This document shows, in pieces, positions 39,181 through 60,632 of a stretch of DNA of 64,000 nucleotides. The notes below the pieces were generated by a model. The model did not search any database. It was given only the letters and a program-made list of their open reading frames with translations, and was not told where the DNA came from. Origin of the DNA: Bacteroidia bacterium (GTDB lineage: Bacteria; Bacteroidota; Bacteroidia; NS11-12g; UBA9320); the NCBI GenBank assembly GCA_017640445.1, contig JAEPQQ010000003.1, positions 42,543 through 106,542 of the forward strand. Direction: 5' to 3'. Position 1 is the stretch's first letter; every line of letters begins with the position of its first letter. The position numbers and the translations under genes were made by a program.

Positions 39181-42129
39181 ATGAACCGCTTACGTATTAA
39201 CTCATTGACCAAATCAGTACTAGTTTTACTGGTTGTATTTATTCAAAGTGTCTCTTCCGGTCTTGCGCAAGAGATTAAACTCTTAAAAGACATTTGGGAT
39301 GCCGAGGATCCCGGGAGGTCTTCTACACCTCAACATTTCATTGAATACGGCGACCTGCTGTTGTTTGTTGCGCAAGAAGAAAAAACGGGAGTCGAACTAT
39401 GGTCTACCGACGGAACTGAGGCAGGAACCAAGTTAGTTAAGGATATTTACCAGGGCCCCGCCCCCTCACAGGTCTCACAATTAACGTTATACCAAAACGA
39501 AGTATACTTCACAGCGAACGATGGGGTTCATGGACAAGAACTATGGAAAACGGATGGAACCGAGGCAGGCACGCAAATAGTGGTAGACGCAAACCTAGGT
39601 GCATTAGGCTCCTCCCCTCTCTATCTCACAGCACACGATGGATTCCTTTATTTCTCAGCATGGGATGCTGATCGTGGTCGAGAACTTTGGAAAACCGACG
39701 GTACTTCAGCGGGAACCACTTCGTTCGATCTGGTAACCGGTCGTTTTAGCGGTGACCCAATCTCCATGGTTAGTTATAAAGGTTACCTGTATTTTGGTGG
39801 TAATGACGTTAGCAGCCTTCATAGTCATGACCTGTGGAGAACAGATGGAACCCCCGAAGGAACCGAAAAGATTGGAACAGGCAGCGATCGCTCTGACGTT
39901 TCTGTATCTGCCCTGACAATTTCAGGGAATAATTTATTCTTTAATGCCTTTTCCGACGGGTCAATTAACAAACAACTTTGGGTTACCGATGGTTCAAAAA
40001 CGGGCACCCGCCTGGTCAAAAAAATTGATTACCGGTTTGGCGACAGACAGGGACCTCAATCGATGACACCTGTCAATAATGGCATCTACTTCAGTGCAAT
40101 GGATTCGTTACATGGACGAGAACTCTGGTGGAGCGATGGCACTGAACAAGGCACCTATCTAGTTAAAGATCTGGAACCTGGTGTTGGGAGTTCAGTTCCA
40201 AACTCTTTCACCGAATGGAAGGGCAAGGTTATTTTCAACGCTCACACAAGCCTCTTTGGCCAGGAGCCTTGGTCTACCGATGGCACGGAACAAGGAACTC
40301 AACTGATTAAAGACATAGCCCCCGGAACGTTTAGATCGGTCATTGGTAACAACAGCTATGTACCGTTCAATGGAAGGTTATACTTTACCGCGAATGATGT
40401 TGCACATGGCGATGAGCTTTGGCGAACCGACGGTGATTTTAGTAGTACGGAATTAGTAAAAGACCTATCACCGGGTCTCCCTGGATCGTCACCCTTTTTC
40501 CTAACCCCGTTTAAAAACAAACTGATCTTTGCTGCCGGTGATACAGCTGTTGGCAGGGAGTTGTGGATATCCGATGGCACCGAGCATGGCACCAAGGTAC
40601 TTGCGAACATTTATTCGTATCCGGGCAGTTCGCAACCAATCGGAATTACAGTAGTAGGCAACGACTTATATTTCAATGCAAATCATCCGGTTAACGGGTT
40701 CGAGCTTTGGAAATCAGATGGGACAGAAGATGGTACCTTTCTCGTACACGATATTCTTCCCGGAAAAGATGGTTCTTTCCCCCAATTCATGACGGCCGGA
40801 GAGGGCAACGTTTTCTTCATTGCCACCGATGAAGACCATGGAAGAGAACCCTGGTTTAGCGACGGAAATGAGACCCGACTTGTAAAAGACGTCAACCAGG
40901 GAATCGCAAGCTCCTCCCCCTTTAGCCTCACTCGCTTTAAGGACCATATTTATTACGTAACCCGGAATGAGATTTCGGGCTTCATGCTCCGAAGGATGAA
41001 TGTTCACACGGGCAAGTCATCCTTGGTTAAAAGCTTCTTCATCGGGTTTCAGTCTACGTCACCTGGTCAGCTAACCGTATGCCGTGGTCGTTTGTTTTTT
41101 ACCGTTTTCCACGAAGAAACTGGATCTGAACTGTGGTCTACCGATGGAACTGAAGCCGGGACCAAACTGGTTAAAGATATTTGTCCAGGTATCTGTTCAT
41201 CATCCCCTAGAAACCTGTTCAACCACAATGAAATTCTGTACTTTACCGCTCGCGGTGAAACTACCGGAACTGAATTGTGGCGATCAGACGGAACACCCGA
41301 GGGTACCCGACTGGTTAAGGATGTTCGCACGGGGTCGGGACATGCAGAATCACGCCCCATGATTAGCCTGGGAGACCTCCTGTTCTTTTCGGCAATCGAT
41401 CTTAGCGGCAGGTATGGACTATGGAAAACGGATGGCACAACCGCAGGCTCCCGACGAGTTAAAGATGTGAGCCCAGGTTTCTTATCGTCAGGCTTTCTGG
41501 ATGCTGTGGTTATGGACGGCATCGTTTACTTCTCGGCATCGCAATACGGGTCAAACAATTACGAGTTATGGCGCAGTGATGGAACTGAAAAAGGCACGTT
41601 TCTGATTAAAGACATTAATCCAAAACCCTATGGTTCCAACCCTAGCCAGTTTACTAACTTCTATGGCCAACTGTATTTTATTGCAACCGACGAACAGGGC
41701 ACCGAACTATGGACGAGCGATGGTACAGAAGACGGTACGCGTATGGTGCAAGACCTATACCCAGGTCTATGGGCGTCTCACCCTCAGGAATTAACGATTG
41801 TTGGACAACGATTATACTTTGTAGCAACTACTTACGATCACGGACGAGAGATCTACTACATAGAGGACCCCAGCATCGTTTTGCCCGAACCAGACCCAAT
41901 ACCGCACTGGTATTATCCAAATCCTTCTAACGGTTTGTTAACGATTGAACTTCAGGAGTTTGATTATACCGCGCCCGTCGGTTTTGAGATCATTGACGTT
42001 ACTGGGCGCCTTCATATGGTTGGGCAGGTAAAAAACCCAAAACAAGACATCGATGTTTCGCGACTTCTTAATGGTATGTATATCGTGAAATTGTCGAACG
42101 GACTGTCAGGTAAACTGATCCGATTTTAA
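39181..42129 (+). CDS. ELWxxDGT-repeat protein (about 17 tandem repeats of ~50 aa) with a T9SS type A C-terminal sorting domain
   Basis: Recurrent 'GxELWxTDGTEAGTxLVKDIxPG'. C-terminal 'YYPNPSNGLLTIEL...LLNGMYIVKL'. Confidence 0.8.
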   Translation: MNRLRINSLTKSVLVLLVVFIQSVSSGLAQEIKLLKDIWDAEDPGRSSTPQHFIEYGDLLLFVAQEEKTGVELWSTDGTEAGTKLVKDIYQGPAPSQVSQLTLYQNEVYFTANDGVHGQELWKTDGTEAGTQIVVDANLGALGSSPLYLTAHDGFLYFSAWDADRGRELWKTDGTSAGTTSFDLVTGRFSGDPISMVSYKGYLYFGGNDVSSLHSHDLWRTDGTPEGTEKIGTGSDRSDVSVSALTISGNNLFFNAFSDGSINKQLWVTDGSKTGTRLVKKIDYRFGDRQGPQSMTPVNNGIYFSAMDSLHGRELWWSDGTEQGTYLVKDLEPGVGSSVPNSFTEWKGKVIFNAHTSLFGQEPWSTDGTEQGTQLIKDIAPGTFRSVIGNNSYVPFNGRLYFTANDVAHGDELWRTDGDFSSTELVKDLSPGLPGSSPFFLTPFKNKLIFAAGDTAVGRELWISDGTEHGTKVLANIYSYPGSSQPIGITVVGNDLYFNANHPVNGFELWKSDGTEDGTFLVHDILPGKDGSFPQFMTAGEGNVFFIATDEDHGREPWFSDGNETRLVKDVNQGIASSSPFSLTRFKDHIYYVTRNEISGFMLRRMNVHTGKSSLVKSFFIGFQSTSPGQLTVCRGRLFFTVFHEETGSELWSTDGTEAGTKLVKDICPGICSSSPRNLFNHNEILYFTARGETTGTELWRSDGTPEGTRLVKDVRTGSGHAESRPMISLGDLLFFSAIDLSGRYGLWKTDGTTAGSRRVKDVSPGFLSSGFLDAVVMDGIVYFSASQYGSNNYELWRSDGTEKGTFLIKDINPKPYGSNPSQFTNFYGQLYFIATDEQGTELWTSDGTEDGTRMVQDLYPGLWASHPQELTIVGQRLYFVATTYDHGREIYYIEDPSIVLPEPDPIPHWYYPNPSNGLLTIELQEFDYTAPVGFEIIDVTGRLHMVGQVKNPKQDIDVSRLLNGMYIVKLSNGLSGKLIRF

Positions 42130-43784: not shown

Positions 43785-43792
43785 TAAATTTG
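43785..43792 (+). promoter_or_regulatory. Candidate Bacteroidetes sigma-A -7 element (TAnnTTTG) for the unknown operon
   Basis: 'TAAATTTG' lies about 27 nt upstream of the first ATG (43820). Confidence 0.35.
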
Positions 43793-43819: not shown

Positions 43820-45193
43820 ATGTCTGATTCTTTTGATTTACTTGACCAATTAGGTGACCAGAAAAAAGTAGAAAACCTTAAAGCAAAACTTGAAAAAAAG
43901 TCCAACGAAAACATTGCAACCAAACTGGACAAAATAGAAGCCGAAATCGAGAAAGCAGTTGGCGAAAACCGCTCTTCTGAAGAAATCGTTAGCAATATTA
44001 TTAACTCCAACTTCGATACGTTAAACGGCGATGTGGAGGCCACTGAACAAGACCTTCAGGAACTCATGCTTCACCTCCGGTCCATGCTGGACAGTTGTGG
44101 TGGGGAGTTTTCTAAACTTCAGGAGTTAAACACGTCGGAACAGAAGTTGATCGACAACGCAACAAAAGCCCGGGAAGAGGCTGAACAAGAAGCCAAAGAT
44201 GCTGAGTCTATGTCGAATGCCTGGAACATTTTGTTTGGGTATAAAAACAGCAAGGTAAAACGTACAAAAGCCGAACTCGAGCAGAAAGTAGAAGCGCTGA
44301 AAGCAGCCGAGGCAGAAGCGCAGAAACGTTATCGCGACCGACTTAAAAATGCCGACATCGGTGAAAGTCTGAACCGTATCATTAGCCAGGTTCAAGGAAT
44401 GGTTGGTATCGTAGAGGAAATGATTCTGGAAGTTGACAACCAGATTGTTGCCCTGAAAAACCGTAAAGAGCTTGCTTTCGAAACCAAGGAAAAAGCAGCT
44501 CAGGTTATGGAAGATCGGAAAACCGACCTCGAAGAGGTTGAGAACCAACTGAAACAAGCGGAGACCGAACTAACTGAACTTCCGAACAACAGCCCTGAAT
44601 ATACGGAACAACAGAAAAAAGTTGCTGACTTGAAAGAACGTCGTGCCGACTTAAAAGGAAAATTCAACATTGCGCTTGGTATTTTCCAGTCGAAGGAACG
44701 TTTTGTTGATCAGATTGTAGTTCACCTGGAAGCACAAACCACTACCAAAAACAACTTAAAACAGTTGATTGGTCAGTTGAAGAGTGACACGGAAGAGCGT
44801 GTAACCACGTATGAATCAGGATTACAGCTTATTCAGTCTGCAACGGCTCAGGAAGCTGCCTCTATGTATGAGGAAGCAGGTGTAAAGACCGATCAGAAAA
44901 TTACTGAGATCGCTGCCAAGGTATTGGTGGGTTCCGAAAAAGATCGTATCGAGCGTGTGAAGAAACATCCTCAGCGTATGACGGAACTTCACAAGGTGCT
45001 TGTTGCCATGGCTGAAGCTACCGCCAAATACAAAGCAGAAGATGCTAAGATAATGGAAGAGCACAGCAAAAAGTTTGGCATCGACGTTAGCCAAACATTC
45101 TCCCATAAATACGAGAAAAACAGCGAACCGTCGAACAACGATGGTGGTTCTTCTGAGCCAACAAATGATTCTGTAAACGAATTGATGGACTAA
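43820..45193 (+). CDS. Operon gene A: acidic all-alpha coiled-coil protein of about 458 aa, no TM (ESCRT-III/PspA- or TelA-like by composition only)
   Basis: Continuous heptad-rich, K/E-rich sequence with an acidic Ser-rich C-terminal tail. The track start at 43790 is a TTG. The first ATG is at 43820. Confidence 0.6.
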   Translation: MSDSFDLLDQLGDQKKVENLKAKLEKKSNENIATKLDKIEAEIEKAVGENRSSEEIVSNIINSNFDTLNGDVEATEQDLQELMLHLRSMLDSCGGEFSKLQELNTSEQKLIDNATKAREEAEQEAKDAESMSNAWNILFGYKNSKVKRTKAELEQKVEALKAAEAEAQKRYRDRLKNADIGESLNRIISQVQGMVGIVEEMILEVDNQIVALKNRKELAFETKEKAAQVMEDRKTDLEEVENQLKQAETELTELPNNSPEYTEQQKKVADLKERRADLKGKFNIALGIFQSKERFVDQIVVHLEAQTTTKNNLKQLIGQLKSDTEERVTTYESGLQLIQSATAQEAASMYEEAGVKTDQKITEIAAKVLVGSEKDRIERVKKHPQRMTELHKVLVAMAEATAKYKAEDAKIMEEHSKKFGIDVSQTFSHKYEKNSEPSNNDGGSSEPTNDSVNELMD

Positions 45194-45212: not shown

Positions 45213-46310
45213 TTGAAGACAATTGACATAAACAATCACTTTACAGAGCTCGACCGAAGCATTCTGGAAGGTGAAACTGCATACTCTGATTACTTCAACT
45301 ACGTTCGGGATTGTTTGAACATCTTATTAAGCTCGTTCGACAACATCACCACGCAAAGCTCGCTTGAAATCAAAGTGCTTAAGAGTTTCTCTCAGAAGTT
45401 CTTAAATACGATTGAAGCATTTCGACTCAAGTATGCCTTTGAGGATGAAAGCCCCATGCGTATTGACTTGACAGAAAGTGGCTTCCCGAACTTTATGGAG
45501 TTTAAGAAGTTAAACGACGACATTGATCGAAAGGAGACTGCTTTGGAGAAACTACCTAGTCAGGACTCACTCAAACAAAGTATTCTGGACCACCTGATTC
45601 GAAAAAAAGAGGACCCAAGGCACCTACTTAAGCAACTGAGCCGATCGAGCTATTACATACGTTTGAAATGGAGCAACCTGTTTACAGAATTCACTCCAGG
45701 AACACTGGAACTTCTGAATGAACATACCGATAAAGCTCGTACCCGAACGTATTTCTACTCCTGGGCGTCTTACGACAGTGTAACAAACAAGCCTTTCATT
45801 TACACCATGGTCTTCGACAACAAGGCCATCTCGAAAGAAGGCGTCACCGACGTAGACAAAGACCCCGGTTTTGTTGAAACAATTAAACGTGTAACGCACA
45901 ATACTTCTCCATTGAAGGTAATTGCTTCCGACATCGACAATGCCTACGAAAGTGTTATGCCCAAGGTAATCAAACGTATTGAAATTGGTCCAATCTTCGG
46001 GAAGTATGCACAGGACAAACATCCGCATACACTGCTTATAAAAAAGCAATTTTCGGACGACGATTTCATCTTTACATACAACACAGAAATCGTCTTTTCA
46101 ACAGGTGAAAAACGAACCAAGTCCTTCCTGTCTAAAGGGGAGCTCCGGCAGGTGTTCTATGTCGACGAGTCGAACAAGGAGTGTATGGAAAAAATGGTCT
46201 CCGACTATCATACATACCTGATCACTTCTCACAAGGTACTGCAATACCTTAACGACAATGAACCCGACATGTTAAAGGATCTTTCGGCACCTGTTTACAC
46301 CTACAACTGA
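45213..46310 (+). CDS. Operon gene B: hypothetical protein
   Basis: 365 aa. No motif recognised. 19-nt gap from gene A. Confidence 0.55.
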   Translation: MKTIDINNHFTELDRSILEGETAYSDYFNYVRDCLNILLSSFDNITTQSSLEIKVLKSFSQKFLNTIEAFRLKYAFEDESPMRIDLTESGFPNFMEFKKLNDDIDRKETALEKLPSQDSLKQSILDHLIRKKEDPRHLLKQLSRSSYYIRLKWSNLFTEFTPGTLELLNEHTDKARTRTYFYSWASYDSVTNKPFIYTMVFDNKAISKEGVTDVDKDPGFVETIKRVTHNTSPLKVIASDIDNAYESVMPKVIKRIEIGPIFGKYAQDKHPHTLLIKKQFSDDDFIFTYNTEIVFSTGEKRTKSFLSKGELRQVFYVDESNKECMEKMVSDYHTYLITSHKVLQYLNDNEPDMLKDLSAPVYTYN

Positions 46311-46311
46311 T

Positions 46312-48270
46312 ATGGAAAAACAAGAATCATCATTATTAAAAATTAAGGAGGATGACCTCCTTGTCTATAAAGACGACATAACGGCGTACCTGAAACAAGT
46401 AAGCTGGCTGCCCGATGGGAAGTCTTCTACAACCATTGATCTGAACTTCTTAACCAACGTTAGTAAGGCTCTTGATCTGAACCAGGAAGACACAGTTTCC
46501 ATTTTAAAGGAAGCCGTTCGAATCAGCAACGACCGAGTTATTCTATCGAATGCAAGCAATCATGTGCTTAACGCTGTTCGGAAAGGTTATACCATTGGTA
46601 AATATCTGGCCAACCTTTATTCGGAAGCGAGTGGGCTTGAACTGCTTCAGCAAAAGAATCAAAACGGTAGTCTTCACCAGTCGGAGCTACCCGAGTTTCA
46701 CGATAAAAGTCAAACTCAGAGTGCTGTTTTATTGTTCGGTTCAGCGTCTTACATCAAGTTTGCGTTGCAGGATTATTTGGCGGACCAGGTTTCAAGCATT
46801 CAGATCGACTTTGGCGGAATACCTCAGCTTAGTCTTACACGCCCGTCAAAGGCCATACAATGTAGCCTTTATTATTTCGGCGCCTATTTGGAGCGATCGG
46901 GTGTGGTTACATCCGACCTGCACCTTGTCAAACTGACCTTACTGTACTTTGAACGGGTTATTGAAGAGGTGCTTCTTCGAAAGAACGCCTTGAAATATTT
47001 GGAAGCCTTTAACCAGAACCATTACAAACTGGAAAACTCTGAGTTTATGGTTCAGGGGCTTGAAGCTCCCTCTTCCATTTCAGTTAAGGGCATGCAATTC
47101 AACCCTACCCGAATGGAGGACATTGTTGCCAATAAACAGGCTAAGCACTTATTTAAGCGATATGCTGAACGACTGCTTTGTTATGATTTTGACGCACGAA
47201 AAAACCCCATCAACGAACTTGGTGGCTTGCCGTCTATAACCATGGCTGATGGGAAGCCCGGTACAGGTAAGAGTATGCTCATTGCCGCAACTGCTACCTT
47301 GCTCCAGGAACGTTGTGATCAATTGGGTCACAACTTCTTGTTCTGGCCACTTCCAGAGACCATTGTTTCGACCTTTCAAGGAGGAACCGCCGAGCGGGCA
47401 ATGGAGTGGTTCAAACCCATGCAGGACCCTAACAAAATTGTATTTGCACCAATAGACGATGCAGAAAACAACCTGGAAGAGCGAACTCGTCAGGGAGTAT
47501 CTGCCGGTGTTCGAGAGTTTATCGGGGTATTCCTCCGAAATACTGAAGGTGCATACGCCATCAATCACGGAAACCGGTTAATGAGTCTGTTTACCAATAT
47601 TCCCGACCAAATTGACAAGGCCGTTTTGTCACGGATTCAAATGCGCATCTCGATGGAGGGAGCCACCTCCAAATATGACTTTATCGATCAGGATTACCTA
47701 TGGTGGAAAAAGTACAACGAACTGGATTCCAAATTCGTAGACAATAAAAAACCAAAGGCTTATGAATACATGGAAGCCCAAAAGGCCGCTACCTCGATCA
47801 ACGAACTTGTAGCAACCCAATATCGCTTTGGCAACACCGACGTGGAAGAAATGTTCCATGCCGTACAAAAAGAAATGGATGTTCAAAGCCATGAATTCTT
47901 TGGCGTATTCTACAATCGGATTTTGGAAAAGTATCCGTTCTTTTCATCGCGCGACCTTCGTAACATTCAGAAGGCGGTAGATGCGCGATTAATAGACTTT
48001 GACCTGCCATCGGTGTGGTGGGACAACCCGGATGACTTCTTTAACCAGGCGTATGACAAAAAGCTCGACATCCTTAAAGACCTGATGAAGCAAAACATGA
48101 AGGGAGTTTCGTTTGGCGATGTGCGACTTTATGAGGCCTTGAACTACATAGAGAACTCCATTCGTATCAACGAAACGGGAGTAAACAGAGAAATTAAAGC
48201 CCGCGCAAAACAACTGTATATACAGCAGCAGGCAAACGAAGAATTAAGGAAGGGAAACATCCATGATTAA
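46312..48270 (+). CDS. Operon gene C: classic-clade AAA+ ATPase (single AAA module at about residues 290-480) with unknown N- and C-terminal domains
   Basis: Walker A 'GKPGTGKSML', non-canonical Walker B 'IVFAPIDDAEN', a second-region-of-homology-like 'YAINHGNRLMSLF', and Arg-finger region 'LSRIQMRISM'. Confidence 0.75.
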   Translation: MEKQESSLLKIKEDDLLVYKDDITAYLKQVSWLPDGKSSTTIDLNFLTNVSKALDLNQEDTVSILKEAVRISNDRVILSNASNHVLNAVRKGYTIGKYLANLYSEASGLELLQQKNQNGSLHQSELPEFHDKSQTQSAVLLFGSASYIKFALQDYLADQVSSIQIDFGGIPQLSLTRPSKAIQCSLYYFGAYLERSGVVTSDLHLVKLTLLYFERVIEEVLLRKNALKYLEAFNQNHYKLENSEFMVQGLEAPSSISVKGMQFNPTRMEDIVANKQAKHLFKRYAERLLCYDFDARKNPINELGGLPSITMADGKPGTGKSMLIAATATLLQERCDQLGHNFLFWPLPETIVSTFQGGTAERAMEWFKPMQDPNKIVFAPIDDAENNLEERTRQGVSAGVREFIGVFLRNTEGAYAINHGNRLMSLFTNIPDQIDKAVLSRIQMRISMEGATSKYDFIDQDYLWWKKYNELDSKFVDNKKPKAYEYMEAQKAATSINELVATQYRFGNTDVEEMFHAVQKEMDVQSHEFFGVFYNRILEKYPFFSSRDLRNIQKAVDARLIDFDLPSVWWDNPDDFFNQAYDKKLDILKDLMKQNMKGVSFGDVRLYEALNYIENSIRINETGVNREIKARAKQLYIQQQANEELRKGNIHD

Positions 48271-49534
48271 ACTGATCCAAAACGGTTTATTTGGTCATTC
48301 ACTGGTACAAGTGAGTACCGAGTCGATGATTAAACGATACAACGACTGTTTGAAGGATATTGGCCTTGCCCCAACGAGGTTGACGTCGTTTCACATCGAC
48401 GGCTGGGGTTGGAGTCCGGAGATTGCTGAGGAACAGGGTGACCGGTTTTATCTGTCTCACGGTTTGGCGAATCCATATGGGATTATAGTAAGTCCCAAAC
48501 AAGCTAATAGCTCCATCTATTTACCTTATCATAGTTTCGACAGGGCAATTCACAAGACCATATTTGAGCAGTACGCTGATCAAATCAAAGACATTACATC
48601 GCGATCGGGCCTATGGTTTGAACTTGACCAGGAAATATCGGCTTACCGATCACCGCAGGACCTACTGATGGTTGATTATGTGAAATTGAACTTCTTTTCA
48701 GTAGATCGCATTATGACCGCCGCTCAGGATCAACGGGCACTGATTCGGGAGTTCTACGACAAACCTCATGCCTGGTCGAACGACGAACTTCGACAACGCA
48801 TCATCGATAGCAGTGAGCGTCATGGAGACCTGAGGTACTCAAAATTTGAGATACCCGCTCATCCTTTCAACGAAATCGAGAACTTCTTCACGGTTGCTTT
48901 TAACGGTGTATACGTGTTTAAAAAACTTCCAAACGGCAAACCTCTTCTGGTACACCAGTCGGGCGATTCCAGCGTATCGGGAGAAACGAAACACGGGCAC
49001 GTAGAATACAACGTCAACGATCCTGAACTCATCAGCTATCTGTACAATGCGGGTATGATCTCGAACAACATCAAACTGTTTGAAGAGCACCCTGTGCTGT
49101 TGGAACTTATGCAAGAGCATCTTTTGTTAGAAGCCGCGTCCAAGTTAGAAGAACCAGTGGACTTCTCAACCATCAACGCTACGCAAAAGAAAGGTGTAGT
49201 GAATCGGCTGATGAAGCAAAACCTTCTTGGAGATGCCTACTTTGAGTTCGAACGGCTCATTATGGATGTTCGCGATGGTTCCGTTGGCGCGTCTTACTCT
49301 ATACCCGATGTTTTACGCCCGTTTTTGCTGAACCCTGAAGCCAAGCTTTCGTCTCAGGAAAAACTGGTGTTGTGGCAGTTGTTATGCACCTACAACCCGG
49401 CCAACCCGGTGTTCACCTATTTGTTTGACAAATCAAGTTTTTACTCTCAGTATAAAACCTGGGATGAAAAACTGCAGCTTTGGATTATCCAAAAAATACT
49501 CGCTCATAAAGAAATTTTTAACGCCTTGATTTAG
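48263..49534 (+). CDS. Operon gene D: hypothetical protein
   Basis: 423 aa. 8-nt overlap with gene C. No motif recognised. Confidence 0.55.
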   Translation: MIKLIQNGLFGHSLVQVSTESMIKRYNDCLKDIGLAPTRLTSFHIDGWGWSPEIAEEQGDRFYLSHGLANPYGIIVSPKQANSSIYLPYHSFDRAIHKTIFEQYADQIKDITSRSGLWFELDQEISAYRSPQDLLMVDYVKLNFFSVDRIMTAAQDQRALIREFYDKPHAWSNDELRQRIIDSSERHGDLRYSKFEIPAHPFNEIENFFTVAFNGVYVFKKLPNGKPLLVHQSGDSSVSGETKHGHVEYNVNDPELISYLYNAGMISNNIKLFEEHPVLLELMQEHLLLEAASKLEEPVDFSTINATQKKGVVNRLMKQNLLGDAYFEFERLIMDVRDGSVGASYSIPDVLRPFLLNPEAKLSSQEKLVLWQLLCTYNPANPVFTYLFDKSSFYSQYKTWDEKLQLWIIQKILAHKEIFNALI

Positions 49535-49541
49535 CGCTTCT

Positions 49542-50057
49542 ATGGATACTTTTTTATCACTACTTGTCGGTTTCGTTATTGGGATTCTGTTCTTTGCCTG
49601 GGACAACAAAAAAGGATATGTGTGGTACAAACGTTGGTACGACCTAAGCCATAAAACACCCCTGGATTCGGACAATGTTTACAGTTTTATAAACAACCAG
49701 CCGTTTTCAAAGAGGCTGGTTCCTGCAATCATCTTAACCGTTCTTTTCGCCTGGGGCTCGTGGTTATTAGGTGACCTAAACCTCATTATTACGCTGGTTA
49801 CCGGTATGCTTTCACTGGTTGGTGTGATAGCCGGTTTCTACGTTGGCCCGATGGTTATGAACAAATTACCTAAAGGTTTAAAAGAGGCAAATAAAACCCT
49901 TAAGAAGATTGACGAATTAGAGAAAGACCTTCTCGACGACCAAAAAGAACCGAAACCGCAACAACCCCAGGCTCCTGAACAAAGCTCAAGCGACAAAACC
50001 GACGACAAAAAAGATACCGATTGGAGAAAAGGTGTTCAGGATTTTCTTGATAAATAA
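49542..50057 (+). CDS. Operon gene E: small 3-TM membrane protein with a charged cytoplasmic tail
   Basis: TMs 'LLVGFVIGILFFAW', 'AIILTVLFAWGSWLL', 'LVTGMLSLVGVIAGFYVG', and a K/D/E/Q-rich C-terminus. Confidence 0.55.
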   Translation: MDTFLSLLVGFVIGILFFAWDNKKGYVWYKRWYDLSHKTPLDSDNVYSFINNQPFSKRLVPAIILTVLFAWGSWLLGDLNLIITLVTGMLSLVGVIAGFYVGPMVMNKLPKGLKEANKTLKKIDELEKDLLDDQKEPKPQQPQAPEQSSSDKTDDKKDTDWRKGVQDFLDK

Positions 50058-50068
50058 CAAAACCACAC

Positions 50069-51658
50069 ATGGAAGAAACCACCGAACAACAAAACAACAG
50101 ACTCTATTGGATTGTCGTAAATCTACGAACCAGAATTTCGACAGCCTTAAAGAAATTCATTAAGAAACGTCCCATCCTTTCCGGGATTGTGATGTTGGTA
50201 ATTGCCTACTTCATCTTTACCGGACGCAGTGGAATTCAACCCGCGTTTCTGTTAATTCGGAAGTTCTTCTTATTGGCGTTGCTGTCGTTGGTGATTTTGT
50301 GGTGGTATTTTAAGGGGTGGAAAACACGTACCAACAGGGGCAACATAATCGGAACGATCTTCCTGCTTGGTTTTGCTGCGTTTAGCTATTTCATTGGACC
50401 AGGTCTGTTTCGATACCTGAGCCTTTATACGCACTACACCAAGCTCGAAAAGGTGGCTTTGACCGAACTGCCCCCTACTGGATTTGAACGGATTCAACCC
50501 ATCAATTCAGTTAGTACCTTAATTAATCAGGAAGCACTGCGGGAAACCGAAGATGCAACACCTCCACGGTTCATGAGAGGTAAAGACGGTAGATATTATT
50601 ACAGTTGTGCTGTTGGACCAGCGAAAGAATATAAGATTCAACAGGTGAGCAAGAATATGTACAAGGTCATTTTTGTACCATCCGACCTACCGGCTCCTGT
50701 GTTCTCTGGCAAATACCGTTCGGATGTAAGTTTTGACATTGGTGAACTTCTCTTGTTCAGTAAAAAGACAACAAGTGCCGTTATCAAAAGATTTACACCG
50801 TTGCAATTCCTAAACTACGAGCCAGCCGAACCGCTTTTTCTTCAAAACGACGAAGGTAAATGGGTTCAGGTGGTCCCTCTCATCAAATGGAGAGGCTTTC
50901 TGTTTCCAAGACCCGTCTTTGGTGGGGTGATGGTTATTGAGGATAAGTCAACCTCGAAAGGCTATTTCTCAAGGGTATTTTTTGGCAAGGGAACGTTCAT
51001 CCCAAAAGCTGAAATTTCCAAGCACCCTTATCTGGTTGGGCAAAACCTCATTCCAAAACAAGTTGCACGGTTTGTTGCCGAAAGCTTTCGCTTTGCCAAT
51101 GGCTTCTTTGCCCCAATGCCTTACTACCATGAGGGTGACATACGTATTCCACACCTGCCAAACGACGTAAACCCACAACCGTTTGTTACCTACTTCAATG
51201 TTCCGGGCGCTCCTAAACTGTACAACTTCTTTGGGCTCGAACCGTATCAGGAAACCAAGAAAGGGCTTAGCCTTAGTCTTCTCATTCCAGGTGACGACGA
51301 TGAACGGGTGTTCTACATGGATCATCGCCAATCGGAAAACACCTATATCGGAAGCAGTGCCATCTCTGCAAAAATTATTGAAAGCAAAAAGAACTACGAC
51401 TGGAGCAAGAACTACCCGGCTGAAAGTCGTCCGTTTGTTCGAAAAGTTGATGGAAAGTCAAGGTTTATGTGGTTAAGCACCATTGTAACAAAGGCTGGCG
51501 ATCAGGGAGAGTACATCGGTGGTAGTATACCGGAACTTACTCTAACGGATGCCACCCATGGGAAAGTGGTCTGGATCAATTCCGACTCCCTCATCAACAA
51601 CGATAGTTGGATCCATCTGGCTGAAGAGGAATTGCAGGAATATTGGCGAAAAGAATGA
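50069..51658 (+). CDS. Operon gene F: membrane protein with 4 N-terminal TM helices and an extracytoplasmic domain of about 400 aa
   Basis: Hydrophobic N-terminal helices followed by an aromatic-rich soluble domain. Confidence 0.55.
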   Translation: MEETTEQQNNRLYWIVVNLRTRISTALKKFIKKRPILSGIVMLVIAYFIFTGRSGIQPAFLLIRKFFLLALLSLVILWWYFKGWKTRTNRGNIIGTIFLLGFAAFSYFIGPGLFRYLSLYTHYTKLEKVALTELPPTGFERIQPINSVSTLINQEALRETEDATPPRFMRGKDGRYYYSCAVGPAKEYKIQQVSKNMYKVIFVPSDLPAPVFSGKYRSDVSFDIGELLLFSKKTTSAVIKRFTPLQFLNYEPAEPLFLQNDEGKWVQVVPLIKWRGFLFPRPVFGGVMVIEDKSTSKGYFSRVFFGKGTFIPKAEISKHPYLVGQNLIPKQVARFVAESFRFANGFFAPMPYYHEGDIRIPHLPNDVNPQPFVTYFNVPGAPKLYNFFGLEPYQETKKGLSLSLLIPGDDDERVFYMDHRQSENTYIGSSAISAKIIESKKNYDWSKNYPAESRPFVRKVDGKSRFMWLSTIVTKAGDQGEYIGGSIPELTLTDATHGKVVWINSDSLINNDSWIHLAEEELQEYWRKE

Positions 51659-52869
51659 TTGGCCTAAGACTTGCATTAACGACTTGCCTGATGCTGACGG
51701 CTTGTTTTTCCTTTTGCCAAAAAGTCAAACGAGTTAAGCAGAAAATGGAAAACAAAACCATCAAGCACATTTATGTGAGGCAAGATGGTTTGGAACATTT
51801 GGAAACGGGCGAGTTCTACCTGATTCAAAAGAAAGACACCTTGTCGAAAGGCAGGTCTTTTGCAAATGGCCTGATTCACACCTATGCTGGTGACACCACC
51901 TGGGTCACGCATAAGGACCGACCAGAGTACAAAGGCATGATGATCAACGGTAAAAAAGAAGGTCAATGGGTATTTGTGCATCGCCTGGGATACACAGGAC
52001 ACCTCCTCTACAAGAACGACAAACAAGTTGGTGATGTCTCATCCTTTTTTCCCAATGGCAAACCCTTTGTTCATTACCATCTCGACGACTCTTCAAAACA
52101 AGACGGACGTTTCGTTTTAATGAACGCCCAAAACGACACTGCTGCTGTCATACATTTTAAGGCCGACAAGCCACATGGCACCATGTGGACCAAATACTCC
52201 TCAGGGAACTACTTCTGCAAGGCCATATACCGGAATGGTAAGCTCTGGACCTACGATGAATTCGACTCAGAGGGTAAACTCAATCCCGAATCATCTGTAA
52301 AAGACGGTAATGGTACAGTGCTAATTAAGAGTGCCACGGAGTCCAAAACAGAACCGATCATGGAAGTACGTTTTGAAAACGGTTACCTGCACGGCCCGTC
52401 CACCAATTTTCAGGTAACCAATGGAGAGAATATGGAGTTTTACAAAAAAGGCGTTCTTGTTGAAAGCATGTACGAAAAATCAAGTGATTCCTCCACTAAC
52501 TGGTCGTCATGGTTTGCCTACATGATGTTCAAAGACAAGAGTGGTCGTTATCTGGGCTATGGACGAGCCAAATTTGGTGATACTGAATTGGAATTGGCGC
52601 TGGATCGATACGTTGATGATAACATACGCGTTCCTGACATTGCTTACGAAATGGCAAAATCGGGTCAGGTTATTGTGGAGTTTACGGTTGAACAAGATGG
52701 TAGGGTAAGCAATTTGACAATTGGATCAGACGTAAAATTAGGTTATGGGGTGGAACAGGCGTGTTTGAACGTTATTGAACAAACCAGTGGCTCGTGGCGC
52801 CCATTCACCCGGTTTGGTTTACCGCAACGAATTAGGTTTACCAAGCCAATCGGGTTTAACTTTTTCTAG
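51643..52869 (+). CDS. Operon gene G: lipoprotein with YwqK/MORN-variant repeats and a C-terminal TonB_C-like domain
   Basis: Signal/lipobox 'LTTCLMLTAC'. Repeated 'G.W..Y..NGKL' units. C-terminal 'VIVEFTVEQDGRVSNLTIGSDVKLGYGVEQACLNVIEQTSGSWRPF' fits the TonB C-terminal pattern. 16-nt overlap with gene F. Confidence 0.6.
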   Translation: MAKRMIGLRLALTTCLMLTACFSFCQKVKRVKQKMENKTIKHIYVRQDGLEHLETGEFYLIQKKDTLSKGRSFANGLIHTYAGDTTWVTHKDRPEYKGMMINGKKEGQWVFVHRLGYTGHLLYKNDKQVGDVSSFFPNGKPFVHYHLDDSSKQDGRFVLMNAQNDTAAVIHFKADKPHGTMWTKYSSGNYFCKAIYRNGKLWTYDEFDSEGKLNPESSVKDGNGTVLIKSATESKTEPIMEVRFENGYLHGPSTNFQVTNGENMEFYKKGVLVESMYEKSSDSSTNWSSWFAYMMFKDKSGRYLGYGRAKFGDTELELALDRYVDDNIRVPDIAYEMAKSGQVIVEFTVEQDGRVSNLTIGSDVKLGYGVEQACLNVIEQTSGSWRPFTRFGLPQRIRFTKPIGFNFF

Positions 52870-54488
52870 AACACCTCAACCTTGGCATACCCCACCATAC
52901 CATTTTCAATAATGCGGATAAAGTAATGGCCCGGTTGGTTTAGCTCTACACCTACCCTGGCATTAGACGAAGTCAAGAATTTAACAATAGAGCCGTAGCT
53001 ATTAAATACTTCAATAACACGTTCTTCTCTCGACTCAAATTCCAATGTACAATGCCCGGAAGTTGGGTTGGGATACACTTTATGTAATCTGGGCGACACC
53101 AAATCGTTATTTCCAACAATCACATAAGTGCCACAAAAACGGTTGCTATCCAGATCCACCTCTAGTTTCCCATTCGGTGCCAGTGCCTCAAAGCACAAAT
53201 CCAGAATCGGGCCACGTTTAATACCCATAAAACGCGTTTTTGATTCAAATGTAGCTTCATCACCTGGTGCCAGGTTAAGGGAATCGAGCACCTCATAATA
53301 GATCGCATTTTGACACCAGGCAAGATGCCCTAGGTTGCAGAAGATAGCCACTGAGTGCAGTGTATCCAGGCCGACATTTTTGATTGCAAACTCTCCCTCT
53401 GCTGTAAAACTACCTACTTGGAATTCGTCAGTGGCAATGCGCCTCAATTGAGCTTGTTTTAGTTGTACATTGGGCGATGGTCTTTCGATGGGTCTTGTAC
53501 GCCAGGGTTGAGCGAACGCCATCATCTGGCCAGAGTACGAATTCCCGGTAAAAATGAACTCCGATTGGGTTCGATGAACATCGGTCACGTTACCTCCTGG
53601 ATTCTGATACATAATAGTGTTCCAGGATGAGTTGGTTTGTTCATGGAGCACGACCTGGTTCGTATCGGCTTCTATAATAAATACGGTGGCATCAATCAGT
53701 TTGATTTTTTTAAACTCTTTGGATGCCTGAAGCAAAGTATCCCTAACGATTAGTCCGGTATCCATTCGAAGAATTGACTTATCTGTTTGAAGTAACACAT
53801 TATCTCCTTGTAACACGGCACCCTGTATTCCGCCTATGTAGGAACTGGAATCAAGTAACACACCAGAAGTATCTGCCTTATAAACGCGCTCTTCGGTTGA
53901 CAACAAAAGCGTTGAACGATCAACAAAGACCATGGCCACCAGTGGTGACCCCATATTGAGCCACCTGGCTGATCCGATCTCGCGTGCAGCTGTATCAAAC
54001 GTAAACAAAGCATTATCAACGCCAATTGCGCCCAATCCATCCCCGTTAAAATCAACCAAAATGGGTTACTCCCAGGGAGGTTTAAGGTACAAGGGTTCTG
54101 TGGTTTCCAGCGTATAGAGCTGCTTCCCATTTGGGCTATATGCGGCAAAGACCACTCGTTCATCCATAACCACATCCCCACTATTGTATTCAACCCCTAC
54201 GGTATGAATAATCGAAGGAGTAGTAAAAATGGTTCGAAAGAACGCATTTGACGTATCCCTGGATGTTAAATGCCACTTTTCCACACCGTTTTGAAGAGTC
54301 ACAATACCTTGATAAAAACAAGACGGAACGGACAGTTTACCTCCAACAATCAATAGAGAATCGTTAAACACAGCTGAACCCAATAGAGTGGATTTGGTAT
54401 GCGAAGTTTCTGTATCAACCCACGACCAGGACTGGCACAACGCAAGGTTGGCATACAAAACGAACAAAAAACTAAGGAAGTGTTTCAT
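52866..54488 (-). pseudogene. T9SS-secreted FG-GAP-like protein gene interrupted by one in-frame TAA (rc of 54066-54068). ORFs 54066..54488 and 52866..54059 form a single reading frame.
   Basis: Upstream ORF has the signal peptide 'MKHFLSFLFVLYANLALC'. Downstream ORF begins at a TTG and ends with Por_Secre_tail 'KVYPNPTSGHCTLEF...QPGHYFIRI'. Same frame, separated by TAA plus two codons. Confidence 0.6.
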
Positions 54489-54564
54489 GGTATCAAAAGT
54501 GTACGAAAGCTTCTCCGAAGATACGGCTTCCGAATATCACAGGCCGTCAGTTGGTTGTCATATA

Positions 54565-54595
54565 CAAAAAAGGCCCGACAATGTCGAGCCTTTCT
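54565..54595 (-). terminator. Bidirectional terminator-like hairpin
   Basis: 'aaaaaaGGCCCGACaatGTCGAGCCtttct'. Confidence 0.4.
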
Positions 54596-54767
54596 GTGGT
54601 GTGGGGCGTACCACAACCATTTTATTTTATTTGACTACATTGTACTATTAAAGCCTAAAAATACAAATAATCTTCATATTAACAACACAATACAATCACA
54701 TCACATACATGTTGTTCGTCCCCAATATTGTCCCCCATTTGGATATATCATATATTTGCGGGGACAA

Positions 54768-56081
54768 ATGAACGTAATTAACATCCCAAATCCTACCATA
54801 AGTTTTCACCCTAAAAATCTCAAGGCCAAATCAAACACTGTACTTTACGCCAGGGTTTATTGGAAAGGGCAAGATTTTAAAGTTTATACCAACTCAAAAG
54901 TAGACCCCATCAAATGGAAGGAACATAAACGAAAATCCAAAAAGTCCGACTTTGATAGTCTTTTTGGAAAAACTTCCATCTATGGTGATCTAAACACAAT
55001 AAGAAATCAAATCATTAATGCATTCGAATTATATAAAGCTCAAGTGATTAATACGGGCAACGAATTTGTATTCAACGAATTCAAATCTTTATGCAGGGAC
55101 AATCTTACTAAAGACAAAAATGTTCAGCGCGGAGATTACCGAACTGACCTAATTGCTTTTGCTAAACACTATTACGCAGAACTTAACGGCCATAGGGCAA
55201 AAGGAACGCTAAAAACGTATAATACATTAATCACTCAGCTAGAAGCATTCAAAGAGACTAGTAACAAACTGTCTTTCGACCTGAAGGACATTGACCTTAA
55301 GTTCTATCATGAATTTGTTTCTTTCTTGTACTCTATCCCTACTCCTACCAAAACTCCAGTCAAAGCAAACACAGTAGGTAAGAAAGTCGCAATTCTTAAG
55401 GCATTTTTAAGGGAGTCGCATGACCGTGGCTATCACAACAACACTGCATACCTCAAAAGCAGTTTCAAAACACCAAGAGAAGAGGTGGATTCTGTTGTAC
55501 TATCTCCAGAACAGGTTCAAACAATTTCCAATTTGGACTTGAAAGAACACCCTGGTCTTTCTGCGGTTCGAGACATCTTTATTTTCAACGTAAAATGTGG
55601 CCTTAGGTATAGCGACCTACAAACCATAACACGTGACATTATGATTGTTGACAGTAACGACAATAGGCAGCTAAGAATCAAATCACAGAAAACTGGTAAG
55701 GACATCCTCCTTCCGTTGATTCCTGAAGCCCATGAAATTTGGGCACGATATGACTACAAATTCCCACATATATGGCCTCAGAAGTTTAATAAAAAGATCA
55801 AGACAATAGCAAAGTTGGCTGAGCTTCAAGATAATTTTTCAGTAGAACGGACTAGTGCCAAAAATGTAAAAACCAGAGAGACACGTCCTTTCTGTGACTG
55901 GATATGCACGCATACAATGAGAAGGACCTGGGCTACTACAGAGTATCGCAGTGGAATCCCTTTATACATAATATCTCGACTTTTGGGGCATAGCTCCGAA
56001 AAGGTCACTAGAAGATACTTAAAGATTGACCTTGACCAAGTAGCATCAGATTATTTCAGTTATAAGAAAAAAAATGACTGA
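54768..56081 (+). CDS. Tyrosine-type site-specific integrase (Bacteroidetes phage-integrase family)
   Basis: C-terminal catalytic region 'HTMRRTWATTEYRSGIPLYIISRLLGHSSEKVTRRYLK' (R...H..R..Y), 438 aa from the ATG at 54768. Confidence 0.8.
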   Translation: MNVINIPNPTISFHPKNLKAKSNTVLYARVYWKGQDFKVYTNSKVDPIKWKEHKRKSKKSDFDSLFGKTSIYGDLNTIRNQIINAFELYKAQVINTGNEFVFNEFKSLCRDNLTKDKNVQRGDYRTDLIAFAKHYYAELNGHRAKGTLKTYNTLITQLEAFKETSNKLSFDLKDIDLKFYHEFVSFLYSIPTPTKTPVKANTVGKKVAILKAFLRESHDRGYHNNTAYLKSSFKTPREEVDSVVLSPEQVQTISNLDLKEHPGLSAVRDIFIFNVKCGLRYSDLQTITRDIMIVDSNDNRQLRIKSQKTGKDILLPLIPEAHEIWARYDYKFPHIWPQKFNKKIKTIAKLAELQDNFSVERTSAKNVKTRETRPFCDWICTHTMRRTWATTEYRSGIPLYIISRLLGHSSEKVTRRYLKIDLDQVASDYFSYKKKND

Positions 56082-57018
56082 GTATCAAATAAAATATGAC
56101 CCTTACCGTTTTAATTCGTTTAAAGAAGGTGAGTCAGAACTAATAACAAGTTATGGATCTTTTCCTAGACAGAGCGCTTTAGAAATGTTTCTCGCAATGG
56201 TCTTTGTATCATTCAATCCAGATGCGTCATATAGTATTATCTCCCCTTTAAAACGCAGCATCACAAATCTTCATGACGGCTACACATTTCATCCACCTAC
56301 AGTTTTGAGCAATAATGAATTAAAACCCACCCAAATTGAAATTGACATAGTGAACTCGTCCAGATTTGAAGAAATGATCGATCAAATATTCTACAAAACT
56401 GACTCAAGGCTCAACCTCTTTTGTTCAAAATATGGTCCTAACCATCCTGGGCAGTTAAGTTCTGTATTGTCCCAACTGGAAAATCTACTTTGTAGTGATA
56501 TCTATCCTCCCGAACAAAGTAATCTCCCCAAAATTGATGTTAAGTTATTTGACACTAAACGACTCATTGGAATCATGAGTGATAGGCAAGCTGAATTAAG
56601 AGGGGGATTGCACAAACAAAGAAAATATTATTGCCACTCATTTGTCAAAACTGAGGCCATAGAAATTTTTGAATTCAACAAATATGAAACTTTTATTAGG
56701 TTCGAATCTTTACACCTCAATGGCAGGTTTATCAACCTTCAGACCAAGAAATGGTTAAAAGGTGATACTGAATTTATATGTCTTTGTCTAGCTGTTGTTC
56801 AAAAGAATTACATTTTCAAACCAATACTCAATAAAGGAATCAGAAATAACAACAGGCTGCACAATGTAATTGCATATTATGAAAAAAGGTATAATTACAA
56901 ATTAGGGCCAAACTTAAGAAAGCCCTCTCAGTATGAAAAGCGATTTGGCAAATATGCTCCGCAGAGTAAAAAAGCTGAGTTTCGTGAGCCGTACTCCTAT
57001 CTCGTGAGTTACGTTTAA
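56074..57018 (+). CDS. Hypothetical protein (island cargo)
   Basis: 314 aa ORF overlapping the integrase stop by 8 nt. AT-rich. Confidence 0.45.
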   Translation: MTEYQIKYDPYRFNSFKEGESELITSYGSFPRQSALEMFLAMVFVSFNPDASYSIISPLKRSITNLHDGYTFHPPTVLSNNELKPTQIEIDIVNSSRFEEMIDQIFYKTDSRLNLFCSKYGPNHPGQLSSVLSQLENLLCSDIYPPEQSNLPKIDVKLFDTKRLIGIMSDRQAELRGGLHKQRKYYCHSFVKTEAIEIFEFNKYETFIRFESLHLNGRFINLQTKKWLKGDTEFICLCLAVVQKNYIFKPILNKGIRNNNRLHNVIAYYEKRYNYKLGPNLRKPSQYEKRFGKYAPQSKKAEFREPYSYLVSYV

Positions 57019-57100
57019 GTTACATTTGATCTACATCTAGGTTACATATTTTCAACACACAACGAATTTATGCACATTTAACTGAGGCCTATAGGTTACG
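57008..57100. repeat. Cluster of four GTTAC(A/G)T direct repeats (iteron or arm-site-like)
   Basis: GTTACG 57008, GTTACAT 57019, GTTACAT 57041, GTTACG 57095. Confidence 0.5.
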
Positions 57101-57139
57101 TTTTAAGAGCCCCCCTATTTTCAGAATTAAATTTGTAGT

Positions 57140-57436
57140 GTGAAAACATCACTAAATATACAACTGTCAATTGAAGAACTCAAAGAGCTAATTGAGGGCA
57201 CAGTTCGTGCATCACTTTCAGCTCTATTGAACAATACTGGTGACAATAAAATGATGTCTGTTCGACGAGTTTGTGAATATCTCGACATCTCAAAACAGAC
57301 CTATTACAATTGGGTGAAGGGTGGTATCTTAAAACCATTCTATATCGGACATAAGCCTTATATAAGGGTTCAAGAACTTCAAGACGCTATATCAACCAGC
57401 CCAGTTAAGTCACAACATCAAATTGATTTATCTTAA
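57140..57436 (+). CDS. Excisionase/MerR-type helix-turn-helix DNA-binding protein
   Basis: 'MSVRRVCEYLDISKQTYYNWVKGGILKPFYIGHKPYIRVQEL' is typical of the HTH_17/Xis family. Confidence 0.6.
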   Translation: MKTSLNIQLSIEELKELIEGTVRASLSALLNNTGDNKMMSVRRVCEYLDISKQTYYNWVKGGILKPFYIGHKPYIRVQELQDAISTSPVKSQHQIDLS

Positions 57437-57453
57437 ATCTAATCCATAAAAAT

Positions 57454-57642
57454 ATGAAAAACATAATTCACATAGATCCTGAAGTTAGTCGATATAAATA
57501 CTTTACGATTGTTCCAGACATAAATTTCACAAGCATTATTCCTGAAGAGCTACAGAATGAAAAAAACATTGACTTTGCTATTTATTTTATAAGTCTATTG
57601 TGCAAACGAATTGGCTACTCACTTAATGGACAATCATGCTAG
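57454..57642 (+). CDS. Small hypothetical ORF (62 aa)
   Basis: Fills the gap between the Xis-like gene and the next ORF. Codirectional. Confidence 0.25.
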   Translation: MKNIIHIDPEVSRYKYFTIVPDINFTSIIPEELQNEKNIDFAIYFISLLCKRIGYSLNGQSC

Positions 57643-58898: not shown

Positions 58899-58904
58899 TA
58901 TAAT

Positions 58905-59279: not shown

Positions 59280-59407
59280 AGAATCAAATGATTATCGTGT
59301 GTAACTGATTTTAATGACTATTTGAAGTTTTGCAAAGATACACATTATTTGCCCATGGTTGACATATATGTTTACCTTCAAAGTTATTATTAGGTTCATC
59401 TTGCCTT

Positions 59408-59638: not shown

Positions 59639-59901
59639 CCTGGAAGGGGAGACACCTCATCCCGTTCAGTTTATTTGCAACGCGACAATCAATCGACTAC
59701 TTCTACGTGAGGCAACTGAGCGCCAAGTGTAGGCGGTAAAGAGAGGCATGCTTTAGAGCTGATTTTTTAAGTTACAACTCCATCCATAATTGAAATCAAT
59801 CGTATTATATAATGTATAATAGTATTTAATGGAGCTTTTAAGTAAATATTAAAATACATTTTGGGTGTGAATTAAGGAGGTGGTCGTTAGCGGTTTTGGA
59901 A

Positions 59902-60591: not shown

Positions 60592-60632
60592 CTTGCAAAC
60601 TCCTTTTCTAACAATTCATTTTAATTTGAAGT

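Follow-up and report, generated by a model that had tools for sequence, protein, structure and literature searches.

A bacterial family of single-module classic-clade AAA ATPases with a predicted Asp in place of the catalytic Walker B Glu

Introduction

AAA ATPases of the classic clade are marked by a short helix between β2 and α2 that carries pore loop 1, and the catalytic Glu of the Walker B motif hhhhDE is typical for active modules (PMC7973254). NSF/Sec18 holds two modules. The first, NSF-D1, is the motor and carries D328/E329, R385/R388, and N374 (PMC6160233), and the second, NSF-D2, is viewed as structural, serving as a scaffold for nucleotide-dependent hexamerization (PMC4520572). Vps4/SKD1, katanin, spastin, and Msp1 are classic AAAs of a single module. 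TRIP13/Pch2 likewise has one AAA module, and its N-terminal domain serves substrate recognition. Cdc48, p97, and VAT consist of two modules with double-psi barrel N domains, a canonical DE, and an RxxR. Here, we describe gene C, which encodes a single-module classic-clade AAA ATPase with hhhhDD at its Walker B motif. The gene lies in a cassette of six genes (A to F) within 64,000 nucleotides of a Bacteroidia bacterium genome (assembly GCA_017640445.1, contig JAEPQQ010000003.1, forward-strand positions 42,543 to 106,542). This whole stretch is called the window, and positions given below are counted from its first nucleotide.

Classification of the AAA Domain

Gene C is a real gene and encodes a classic-clade AAA ATPase. 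Its product matches P0001, a protein deposited as 'AAA family ATPase' from a Bacteroidia metagenome-assembled genome, at 100% identity and coverage. Direct translation finds the open reading frame (ORF) and the motifs GKPGTGKS, FAPIDDAEN, and SRIQMR where the original prediction, an earlier reading of the window's letters, had placed them. PF00004 is the only Pfam family above its cutoff in the protein, matching residues 314–447 with a score of 36 bits (cutoff 21.2, E 1.1e-8). In the AlphaFold2 (AF2) model, which has a mean predicted local distance difference test score (pLDDT) of 81, an alpha/beta unit and a helical bundle (residues 8–222) precede an AAA alpha/beta core at about residues 300–450. 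The helix that marks the classic clade is present in this model: a strand at residues 341–344 is followed by a helix at 349–354, the loop STFQGG, and a helix at 360–371.

Fold and profile searches lead to the same clade. Foldseek comparison of the model with the PDB returns AAA+ proteins only, mostly of the classic clade. Among these are TRIP13, Rpt of the proteasome, AFG3L2, katanin, Vps4, Msp1, and p97, with E values from 4e-6 to 1e-4, and also spastin. A profile of the full-length close family is too divergent for PDB sequences and has no match at E ≤ 1e-3. The informative profile is that of the AAA domain alone, built from the extended family, which has 293 PDB matches, all of them classic AAA chains. 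VAT, Cdc48, p97, AFG2, NSF, and Rix7 come first, with about 82 bits for each domain, and among single-domain matches by sequence the best is Vps4B, at 5.6e-21. The original call of a classic-clade protein holds on these grounds, as does its description of a single AAA module between family-specific N- and C-terminal flanks.

A different placement would make gene C a McrB-like GTPase, a MoxR-like protein, another P-loop NTPase, or a mobile anti-phage defence ATPase. Sub-threshold PADLOC matches to DruB (E 0.0038, in the N-terminal, non-ATPase region) and IetA (E 0.016) point in this direction, as does the location of some relatives on Vibrio megaplasmids. However, only PF00004 passes its Pfam cutoff, the strong fold and profile matches are all classic-clade, and a McrB-like, AAA_5-type, or other non-classic family was found neither among Pfam matches at E ≤ 0.1 nor among the top 50 fold matches. 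PADLOC families are significant for none of the six cassette proteins, relatives are absent from 2.9 million viral contigs, and the plasmid matches are non-mobilizable replicons of 0.9–4.6 Mb. With the cassette present in at least 579 species representatives as well, a non-classic or defence identity is very improbable.

The Gene C Family

More than 1739 homologues of gene C were found by search. Motif counts were taken from 120 homologues among the matches listed, and all 120 share GxPGTGKS at the Walker A motif, ST[FY]QGG at pore loop 1, DD[AG]E at the Walker B motif, and [LMI]SR in the second region of homology. The Walker B counts divide into 109 DDAE, two DDAENS variants, and nine DDGE. 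An alignment of 22 family sequences reaching down to 44% identity (alignment A1) holds D382, D383, E385, N386, and N387 invariant, together with T428, N429, S440, R441, and R445. Because DD[AG]E and [LMI]SR are kept in every listed homologue and these residues are invariant in A1, the unusual Walker B motif is not a chance feature of one sequence.

The family appears by sequence to be a well-separated branch of the classic clade with N- and C-terminal regions of its own. When the AAA domain is compared by phmmer with 1.84 billion representatives, only 335 proteins are reached at E ≤ 1e-3, and ordinary AAAs such as FtsH are not among them. Among the 150 of these 335 matches that were listed, full-length relatives are mostly about 560–690 residues long with the AAA module starting at about residue 190–320; the others are shorter fragments and one protein of 1631 residues. 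The family-specific terminal regions are kept at full length even at 25% identity. Among the species representatives of GTDB, at least 579 have a gene C relative.

Register of the Walker B Motif

The Walker B motif of gene C is hhhhDD and not hhhhDE, and D383 fills the position of the Glu. The original prediction had recognized DDAE as non-canonical, which is real and conserved in the family, and had taken the catalytic Glu to be displaced by two residues. Pairwise phmmer alignments conflict on the register, with Vps4B setting IDD on IDE and Yme1 being offset by two residues, and the register given here rests on multiple and profile alignments. In a MAFFT alignment of 117 family representatives (50% identity) with Vps4B and Yme1 fragments, I-D-D-A-E is aligned on I-D-E-I-D of Vps4B and on I-D-E-L-D of Yme1. 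The family profile 'iDdie' is likewise set on the IDEID of both VAT modules. In the AF2 model, β3 (residues 375–382) stops at D382, the expected place of the Mg-binding Asp. The acidic pair is DD in 97 of the 117 representatives, ED in 11, and DE in 7, the remaining two being one misaligned row and one frameshifted sequence. Since the MAFFT alignment, the VAT profile, the end of β3, and the D/E counts agree, D383 is most simply read as an in-place Glu-to-Asp substitution next to D382, the predicted Mg-binding Asp. The search for a conventional D-E pair elsewhere in gene C found none.

The displaced Glu of the original prediction would be E385, activating water from two residues downstream in an unusual geometry of hydrolysis. 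This would suit the invariance of E385 in the close family and the D or E found at the matching position, two residues after the acidic pair, throughout the extended family. However, E385 aligns on the second Asp of DExD in Vps4B, Yme1, and VAT, and the members that have the canonical Glu keep the later acidic residue too (DEAE, DEFE, and DEID). The same Glu is found in NSF-D2, which is viewed as a structural scaffold and not as a catalytic domain (PMC4520572). In the AF2 model, E385 opens a low-confidence loop after β3. Because relatives with the canonical Glu also retain an acidic residue at this position, E385 is probably the counterpart of the second Asp in the classic DExD box and not a relocated catalytic residue; a displaced catalytic Glu is improbable. 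The classification of gene C and its motif register, that of a classic-clade AAA with an in-place Asp, are held with high confidence. Nothing relevant was found in the literature on Asp instead of Glu in the Walker B motif.

In a sub-branch of relatives, with proteins of 450–640 residues (P0351, P0363, P0372, P0375, P0384, P0385, and P0391), the order of the acidic pair is inverted to EDID or EDIE. At the one such locus examined (L087), two genes of A-like and B-like size lie upstream and two genes of about 215 residues downstream, and there is no DUF6638 gene.

Sensor 1, Arginine Fingers, and Pore Loops

The sensor-1 pair T428-N429 is invariant, whereas gene C has a single Arg finger of the usual two. 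In the MAFFT alignment, A-V-L-S-R-I-Q-M-R of gene C stands opposite A-I-R-R-R-F-E-K-R of Vps4B, and the family profile 'ls..R' is aligned with 'RRpgR' of VAT. R441 aligns with the second Arg finger, the Arg before the F in RRpgRF. The site of the first finger is S440, an invariant Ser that becomes Gln or Asn in distant relatives, so that S/Q/N-R in the family stands opposite the R-R of Vps4B, and R-R occurs in no family member. R445 aligns with the non-finger Arg of RFD-R. By this alignment, R441 would be the sole retained Arg finger. The original prediction of Arg fingers within SRIQMRISM stands for R441; it fails for the first finger site, which is a Ser, and for R445, which is a non-finger Arg.

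Both pore loops rank among the most conserved segments of gene C. Pore loop 1 is aligned with SKWLGE of Vps4B. The near-invariant segment after the Walker B motif is placed at the position of pore loop 2 by alignment to Vps4B, and AF2 confidence is low for residues 385–397.

N- and C-Terminal Regions

In the AF2 model, the N-terminal region forms a small alpha/beta unit (residues 8–71) followed by a helical bundle (residues 80–222). Pfam and NCBIfam scans of this region find no known domain, and the Pfam scan of residues 1–300 detects neither an MIT domain nor any other. Distant relatives retain the region over its full length. After the core, four lid helices (residues 454–560, with an insertion at 472–508) lead into a helical C-terminal extension that closes with a 46-residue helix (residues 601–646). 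Fold alignments to TRIP13, Rpt, and katanin span 290–340 columns. The flank sizes of the original prediction hold approximately, with about 250–290 residues on the N-terminal side and about 200 after the core. The C-terminal flank had also been described as an unknown fold, and here the model differs in suggesting that about 100 of its residues form an ordinary AAA lid.

Proposed Mechanism

The favored reading of gene C is a ring-forming remodeler with slow or partner-gated ATP turnover that acts on a co-encoded soluble partner near the membrane, with a probability of about 0.6 for the reading as a whole, its classification and register included. The analysis shows the classification, the motif register and its conservation, and the cassette; that the protein forms hexamers and hydrolyzes ATP slowly, what its substrate is, and that it works at the membrane are inferred. 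The nucleotide site would be weakened, not abolished. The Walker A Lys, D382, the sensor-1 N429, and the trans Arg finger R441 are kept and would allow ATP-Mg binding and sensing of the γ-phosphate in trans. The elements that would set the rate are weakened, with the catalytic carboxylate of D383 one methylene shorter and one Arg finger lost at S440. The family-specific N-terminal domain would recruit the co-encoded partner, which may be A, B, or the DUF6638 protein, and the conserved pore loops would act on this partner at the cytoplasmic face of the membrane. The mechanistic part of the reading is more tentative, at a little under even odds.

As the main alternative, gene C could encode a pseudo-motor resembling NSF-D2, one that binds ATP, leaves it essentially unhydrolyzed, and serves as a nucleotide-dependent scaffold or switch for A, B, and the DUF6638 protein at the membrane without threading. 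Its DDxE is of the same type as that of NSF-D2, regarded as a hexamerization scaffold (PMC4520572), and the family-wide loss of one Arg finger fits this role as well. However, the sensor-1 Asn and one Arg finger are invariant in the gene C family, unlike in NSF-D2. A working motor is preferred over a pure scaffold because all family sequences that align reliably have an acidic residue at the catalytic position, which toggles between D and E among relatives, because pore loops 1 and 2 are so highly conserved, and because the chain has no second, active AAA module. A pseudo-motor is considered possible and, on balance, unlikely.

Several points weigh against the slow remodeler favored above. The first phmmer alignment with Yme1 is offset by two residues, so a single pairwise alignment is ambiguous. 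Part of the set of cassette loci was retrieved by the pattern P[IV]DDAENN, which makes conservation within those loci partly circular; the 120 listed homologues and the AAA-domain representatives were chosen without it. The substrate is assigned from co-occurrence only. Protein A has no significant structural relative, and protein B, the DUF6638 protein, and protein F have none by sequence. By analogy to NSF-D2, in which DDxE goes with a scaffold role (PMC4520572), the module could be a non-hydrolyzing switch. The literature on DUF6638 and DUF2333 yielded no relevant paper with biochemistry of any member.

The Cassette in the Window

The features of gene C and of the cassette are listed in Table 1. 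The cassette is compact and lies on the forward strand, with a gap of 1 nt between genes B and C and an overlap of 8 nt between the stop codon of gene C and the start of gene D. Transmembrane segments are absent from proteins A to D. Gene B always stands between gene A and the AAA gene, and the DUF6638 gene (alignment A3) is a constant companion of the gene C-type AAA by synteny. The sequence comparisons show the four-gene core (A, B, AAA, and DUF6638) to be a conserved cassette in which gene C is the sole recognizable enzyme. NCBIfam has no match for any cassette protein, and beyond the AAA and DUF6638 labels, the copies of the core proteins that were searched match nothing in Pfam or NCBIfam. 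Against the PDB, profiles of A, DUF6638, and F give only noise.

Table 1. Coordinates of gene C, its motifs, and the neighboring cassette features in the window.
Feature	Position	Strand	Description and basis
Gene C, AAA ATPase	46312..48270	+	ATG start, 652 aa, single-module classic-clade
N-terminal region, family-specific (aa 1 to ~250)	46312..47061	+	AF2 secondary structure
Walker A / P-loop GKPGTGKS (aa 314-321)	47251..47274	+	Direct translation
Pore loop 1 STFQGG (aa 353-358), conserved aromatic F/Y355	47368..47385	+	Translation, alignment
Walker B FAPIDDAE (aa 378-385)	47443..47466	+	Translation, alignments
Near-invariant NNLEERTRQGVSAGVRE (aa 386-402), pore-loop-2 position, β3 to α3	47467..47517	+	Alignment A1
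Sensor 1 (T428-N429) and second region of homology, TNIPDQIDKAVLSRIQMR (aa 428-445)	47593..47646	+	Translation, alignments
AAA lid and helical C-terminal extension	47671..48267	+	AF2 secondary structure, fold alignments
Candidate operon promoter TAAATTTG	43785..43792	+	28 nt upstream of gene A start; read in sequence
Gene A	43820..45193	+	457 aa, soluble, all-helical elongated bundle; ORF; homologue P0121 starts at same ATG
Gene B	45213..46310	+	365 aa, soluble, no known family; ORF, Pfam/NCBIfam scans
Gene D, DUF6638 protein	48263..49534	+	423 aa; Pfam PF20343, E 1.5e-30
Gene E, membrane protein	49542..50057	+	171 aa; three hydrophobic segments, charged C-terminal tail
Gene F	50069..51658	+	529 aa; three N-terminal hydrophobic segments, large conserved domain of no known family

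Protein A is modeled by AF2 as an elongated bundle of long helices (pLDDT 73), from an alignment (A5) shallower than A2. Its conserved stretches are residues 1–11, 133–147, and 450–457. In alignment A2, both termini are conserved and acidic-hydrophobic, with DSFDLL at the N-terminus and ELMD or DDLL at the C-terminus. The tip of the hairpin carries a conserved aromatic-basic motif, AWNILFGYKN here, FIGIFSRQK in Sinorhizobium meliloti, and IVGIFFKKK in Vibrio. The termini could be docking peptides for the ATPase and the tip a membrane-interface loop. The original prediction had taken the flanking domains of gene C as possible substrate adaptors, for instance for protein A. Strict co-conservation supports a functional link between the AAA and protein A, not a contact.

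No Pfam family and no transmembrane segment were found for protein A, and the fold search gave no significant match (best E 0.02). The weak fold matches, to tripartite alpha-pore-forming toxins (AhlC, NheA, and SmhB) and F-BAR domains, have E values of 0.02–0.2 and were set aside as too weak to use. An ESCRT-III/PspA-like identity for protein A, which would make the cassette a bacterial Vps4 system, was also considered and is supported by neither sequence nor fold: protein A and 18 homologues have no Snf7 or PspA match even at E ≤ 1, and ESCRT-III/PspA structures are absent from its fold matches. No recurrent family emerges from Pfam scans of 19 homologues of A, 15 of F, and the A' and B' proteins of distant cassettes. 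A precomputed PF27695 label is attached to one homologue of protein A. For gene F, homology to DUF2333, the downstream gene in S. meliloti, was considered, and the comparison showed none.

The candidate promoter upstream of gene A matches the Bacteroidetes -7 promoter box (TAnnTTTG). Scans for sigma-70 consensus promoters and terminators within the cassette remain at or below shuffled expectation, and Rfam finds no riboswitch or leader RNA upstream of gene A.

Distribution and Variation of the Cassette

The same gene order is found at about 80 loci of several phyla with unrelated flanking genes. These loci include Bacteroidota, among them cultured Polaribacter, Winogradskyella, Tenacibaculum, and Aquimarina, as well as Desulfonema magnum and other Desulfobacterota, Trueperaceae, and Opitutaceae. 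The four-gene core occurs in Bacteroidota, Desulfobacterota, Deinococcota, Verrucomicrobiota, Sinorhizobium, and Vibrio. The cassette family delineated in this way has an AAA protein of about 630–660 residues with a DD/SR-type site, behind A-like and B-like genes and ahead of DUF6638, and the window genes fit this pattern. In S. meliloti, the cassette adjoins choVW and tdk, and in Vibrio parahaemolyticus and V. vulnificus, it lies on megaplasmids. The A and B proteins of the Bacteroidia and S. meliloti cassettes are homologous by hhalign (97.7%, E 1.6e-12 for A and 99.9%, E 3.6e-31 for B). Even distant AAA relatives, with 26–34% identity in the AAA domain and DDID, DDVD, or DEAE at the Walker B motif, sit in A'-B'-AAA-DUF6638 cassettes.

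The genes downstream of the core vary. Loci L083, L084, L086, L088, and L089 keep A-B-AAA-DUF6638 and have lineage-specific genes after it. The downstream membrane partners are E and F in the window and DUF2333, DUF1523 with Band_7, or unannotated proteins of unknown type elsewhere. No relevant paper was found in the literature on the cassette, DUF6638, or DUF2333, and comparative-genomics papers on PSP and ESCRT describe other AAA associations, not the gene A–D cassette.

The cassette gene order survives insertions (L061, 7352–7864 and 9964–12243; L088, 9001–10746). Some Flavobacteriaceae have genes for a 2OG-Fe(II) oxygenase and for an amidohydrolase-SnoaL fusion inserted between cassette genes, and these inserts look unrelated to the cassette system. 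The AAA and DUF6638 genes of S. meliloti Ak57 are separated by an endonuclease-domain gene and the transposase ISRm16. Locus L088 belongs to a 3.72-Mb record titled 'plasmid pSymB' (CP090106.1); its size and choVW, tdk, and fhs look chromosomal, and the record is probably mislabeled.

Other Features of the Window

A TonB_C protein of 408 residues (51643–52869, +; the domain is C-terminal) is encoded directly after gene F and shares its last 16 nt. It stands next to the cassette at no other locus and is probably not part of the system. Farther downstream, the guanine-plus-cytosine content falls from about 0.45 to 0.34–0.39 across 54399–64000. This region holds a tyrosine integrase of 560 residues (54399–56081), several ORFs of no family, a YgjP-like metallopeptidase (61588–62325, -), and a fragmentary type I restriction R subunit (62292–63878, -), and it looks like an integrated island. 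A tRNA was not found at the island junction (53500–55000). Upstream of the cassette, a 982-residue protein (39181–42129, +) is built from about 20 tandem units of about 45 residues with the signature ELW.(T/S)DGT..GT..VKD and has a sorting domain for type IX secretion at its C-terminal end (Por_Secre_tail, E 2.6e-11). Another type IX secretion cargo is encoded at 52866–54059 (-).

Comparison with Known Systems

AAA ATPases are well known and DDxE has a precedent in NSF-D2, so the motif alone is not a new mechanism. What is new is a family of classic AAAs that stand alone as single modules, have Asp in the catalytic place (in 97 of 117 representatives at 50% identity), and keep only one Arg finger. 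Its members are tied to a conserved cassette that also encodes at least three proteins of unknown function and reaches across at least five phyla, including the tractable S. meliloti and V. parahaemolyticus. How a type-I AAA works without the canonical catalytic Glu, and what role the DUF6638 cassette plays, are questions that can be tested.

NSF-D2 shares the DDxE of gene C, with VVVDDIERLL (PDB 3j94 and 1nsf) against APIDDAENNL. In the hhalign comparison of NSF-D2 with the gene C family, the two DD pairs coincide, as do the two Glu residues, and both have a weakened second region of homology. Because NSF-D2 is an accepted member of the classic clade and also has DD, a D-E Walker B motif is not required for membership; the DD of gene C speaks against a canonical active site, not against the clade. 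The two differ in that NSF-D2 is the second module of a two-module protein, whereas gene C encodes a single module with unrelated termini and partners. NSF-D2 also lacks the TN pair of sensor 1 and the Args of the Arg fingers, whereas gene C keeps N429 and R441.

Among the Cdc48/p97/VAT proteins, VAT D1 has the highest profile score and is colinear with gene C in Walker A, pore loop 1, Walker B, sensor 1, and the second region of homology. These proteins differ from gene C in their two modules, N domains, canonical DE, and RxxR; gene C has one module and a helical N-terminal region. TRIP13/Pch2 gives the best Foldseek match (E 3.6e-6, 334 aligned columns), with a sequence identity of 15% and a low global template modeling score (TM-score) of 0.23/0.37. 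PADLOC detects neither a bacterial HORMA nor a Trip13 defence family among the cassette proteins.

Vps4 gives the tightest local superposition on gene C, with a root-mean-square deviation of about 5 Å over about 197 columns at 22–23% identity. The Vps4 group shares the pore-loop layout, the TN of sensor 1, and the xRxxxR pattern with gene C. Vps4 has DEID and RR where gene C has DDAE and SR, and the partners of gene C, namely A, B, the DUF6638 protein, and membrane proteins, are unlike those of Vps4. Pfam and fold searches of gene C and the cassette detect no MIT domain, Snf7/PspA neighbor, or Vps4 beta-domain.

A broader and more speculative proposal, which we regard as doubtful, is that the core and its interchangeable membrane partners form an undescribed, widespread bacterial remodeling system associated with the membrane. 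A ring with a slow, partner-gated ATPase cycle would take apart or reset assemblies of protein A at the inner membrane. The logic of such a system would be analogous to that of ESCRT-III and Vps4 or of SNAREs and NSF.

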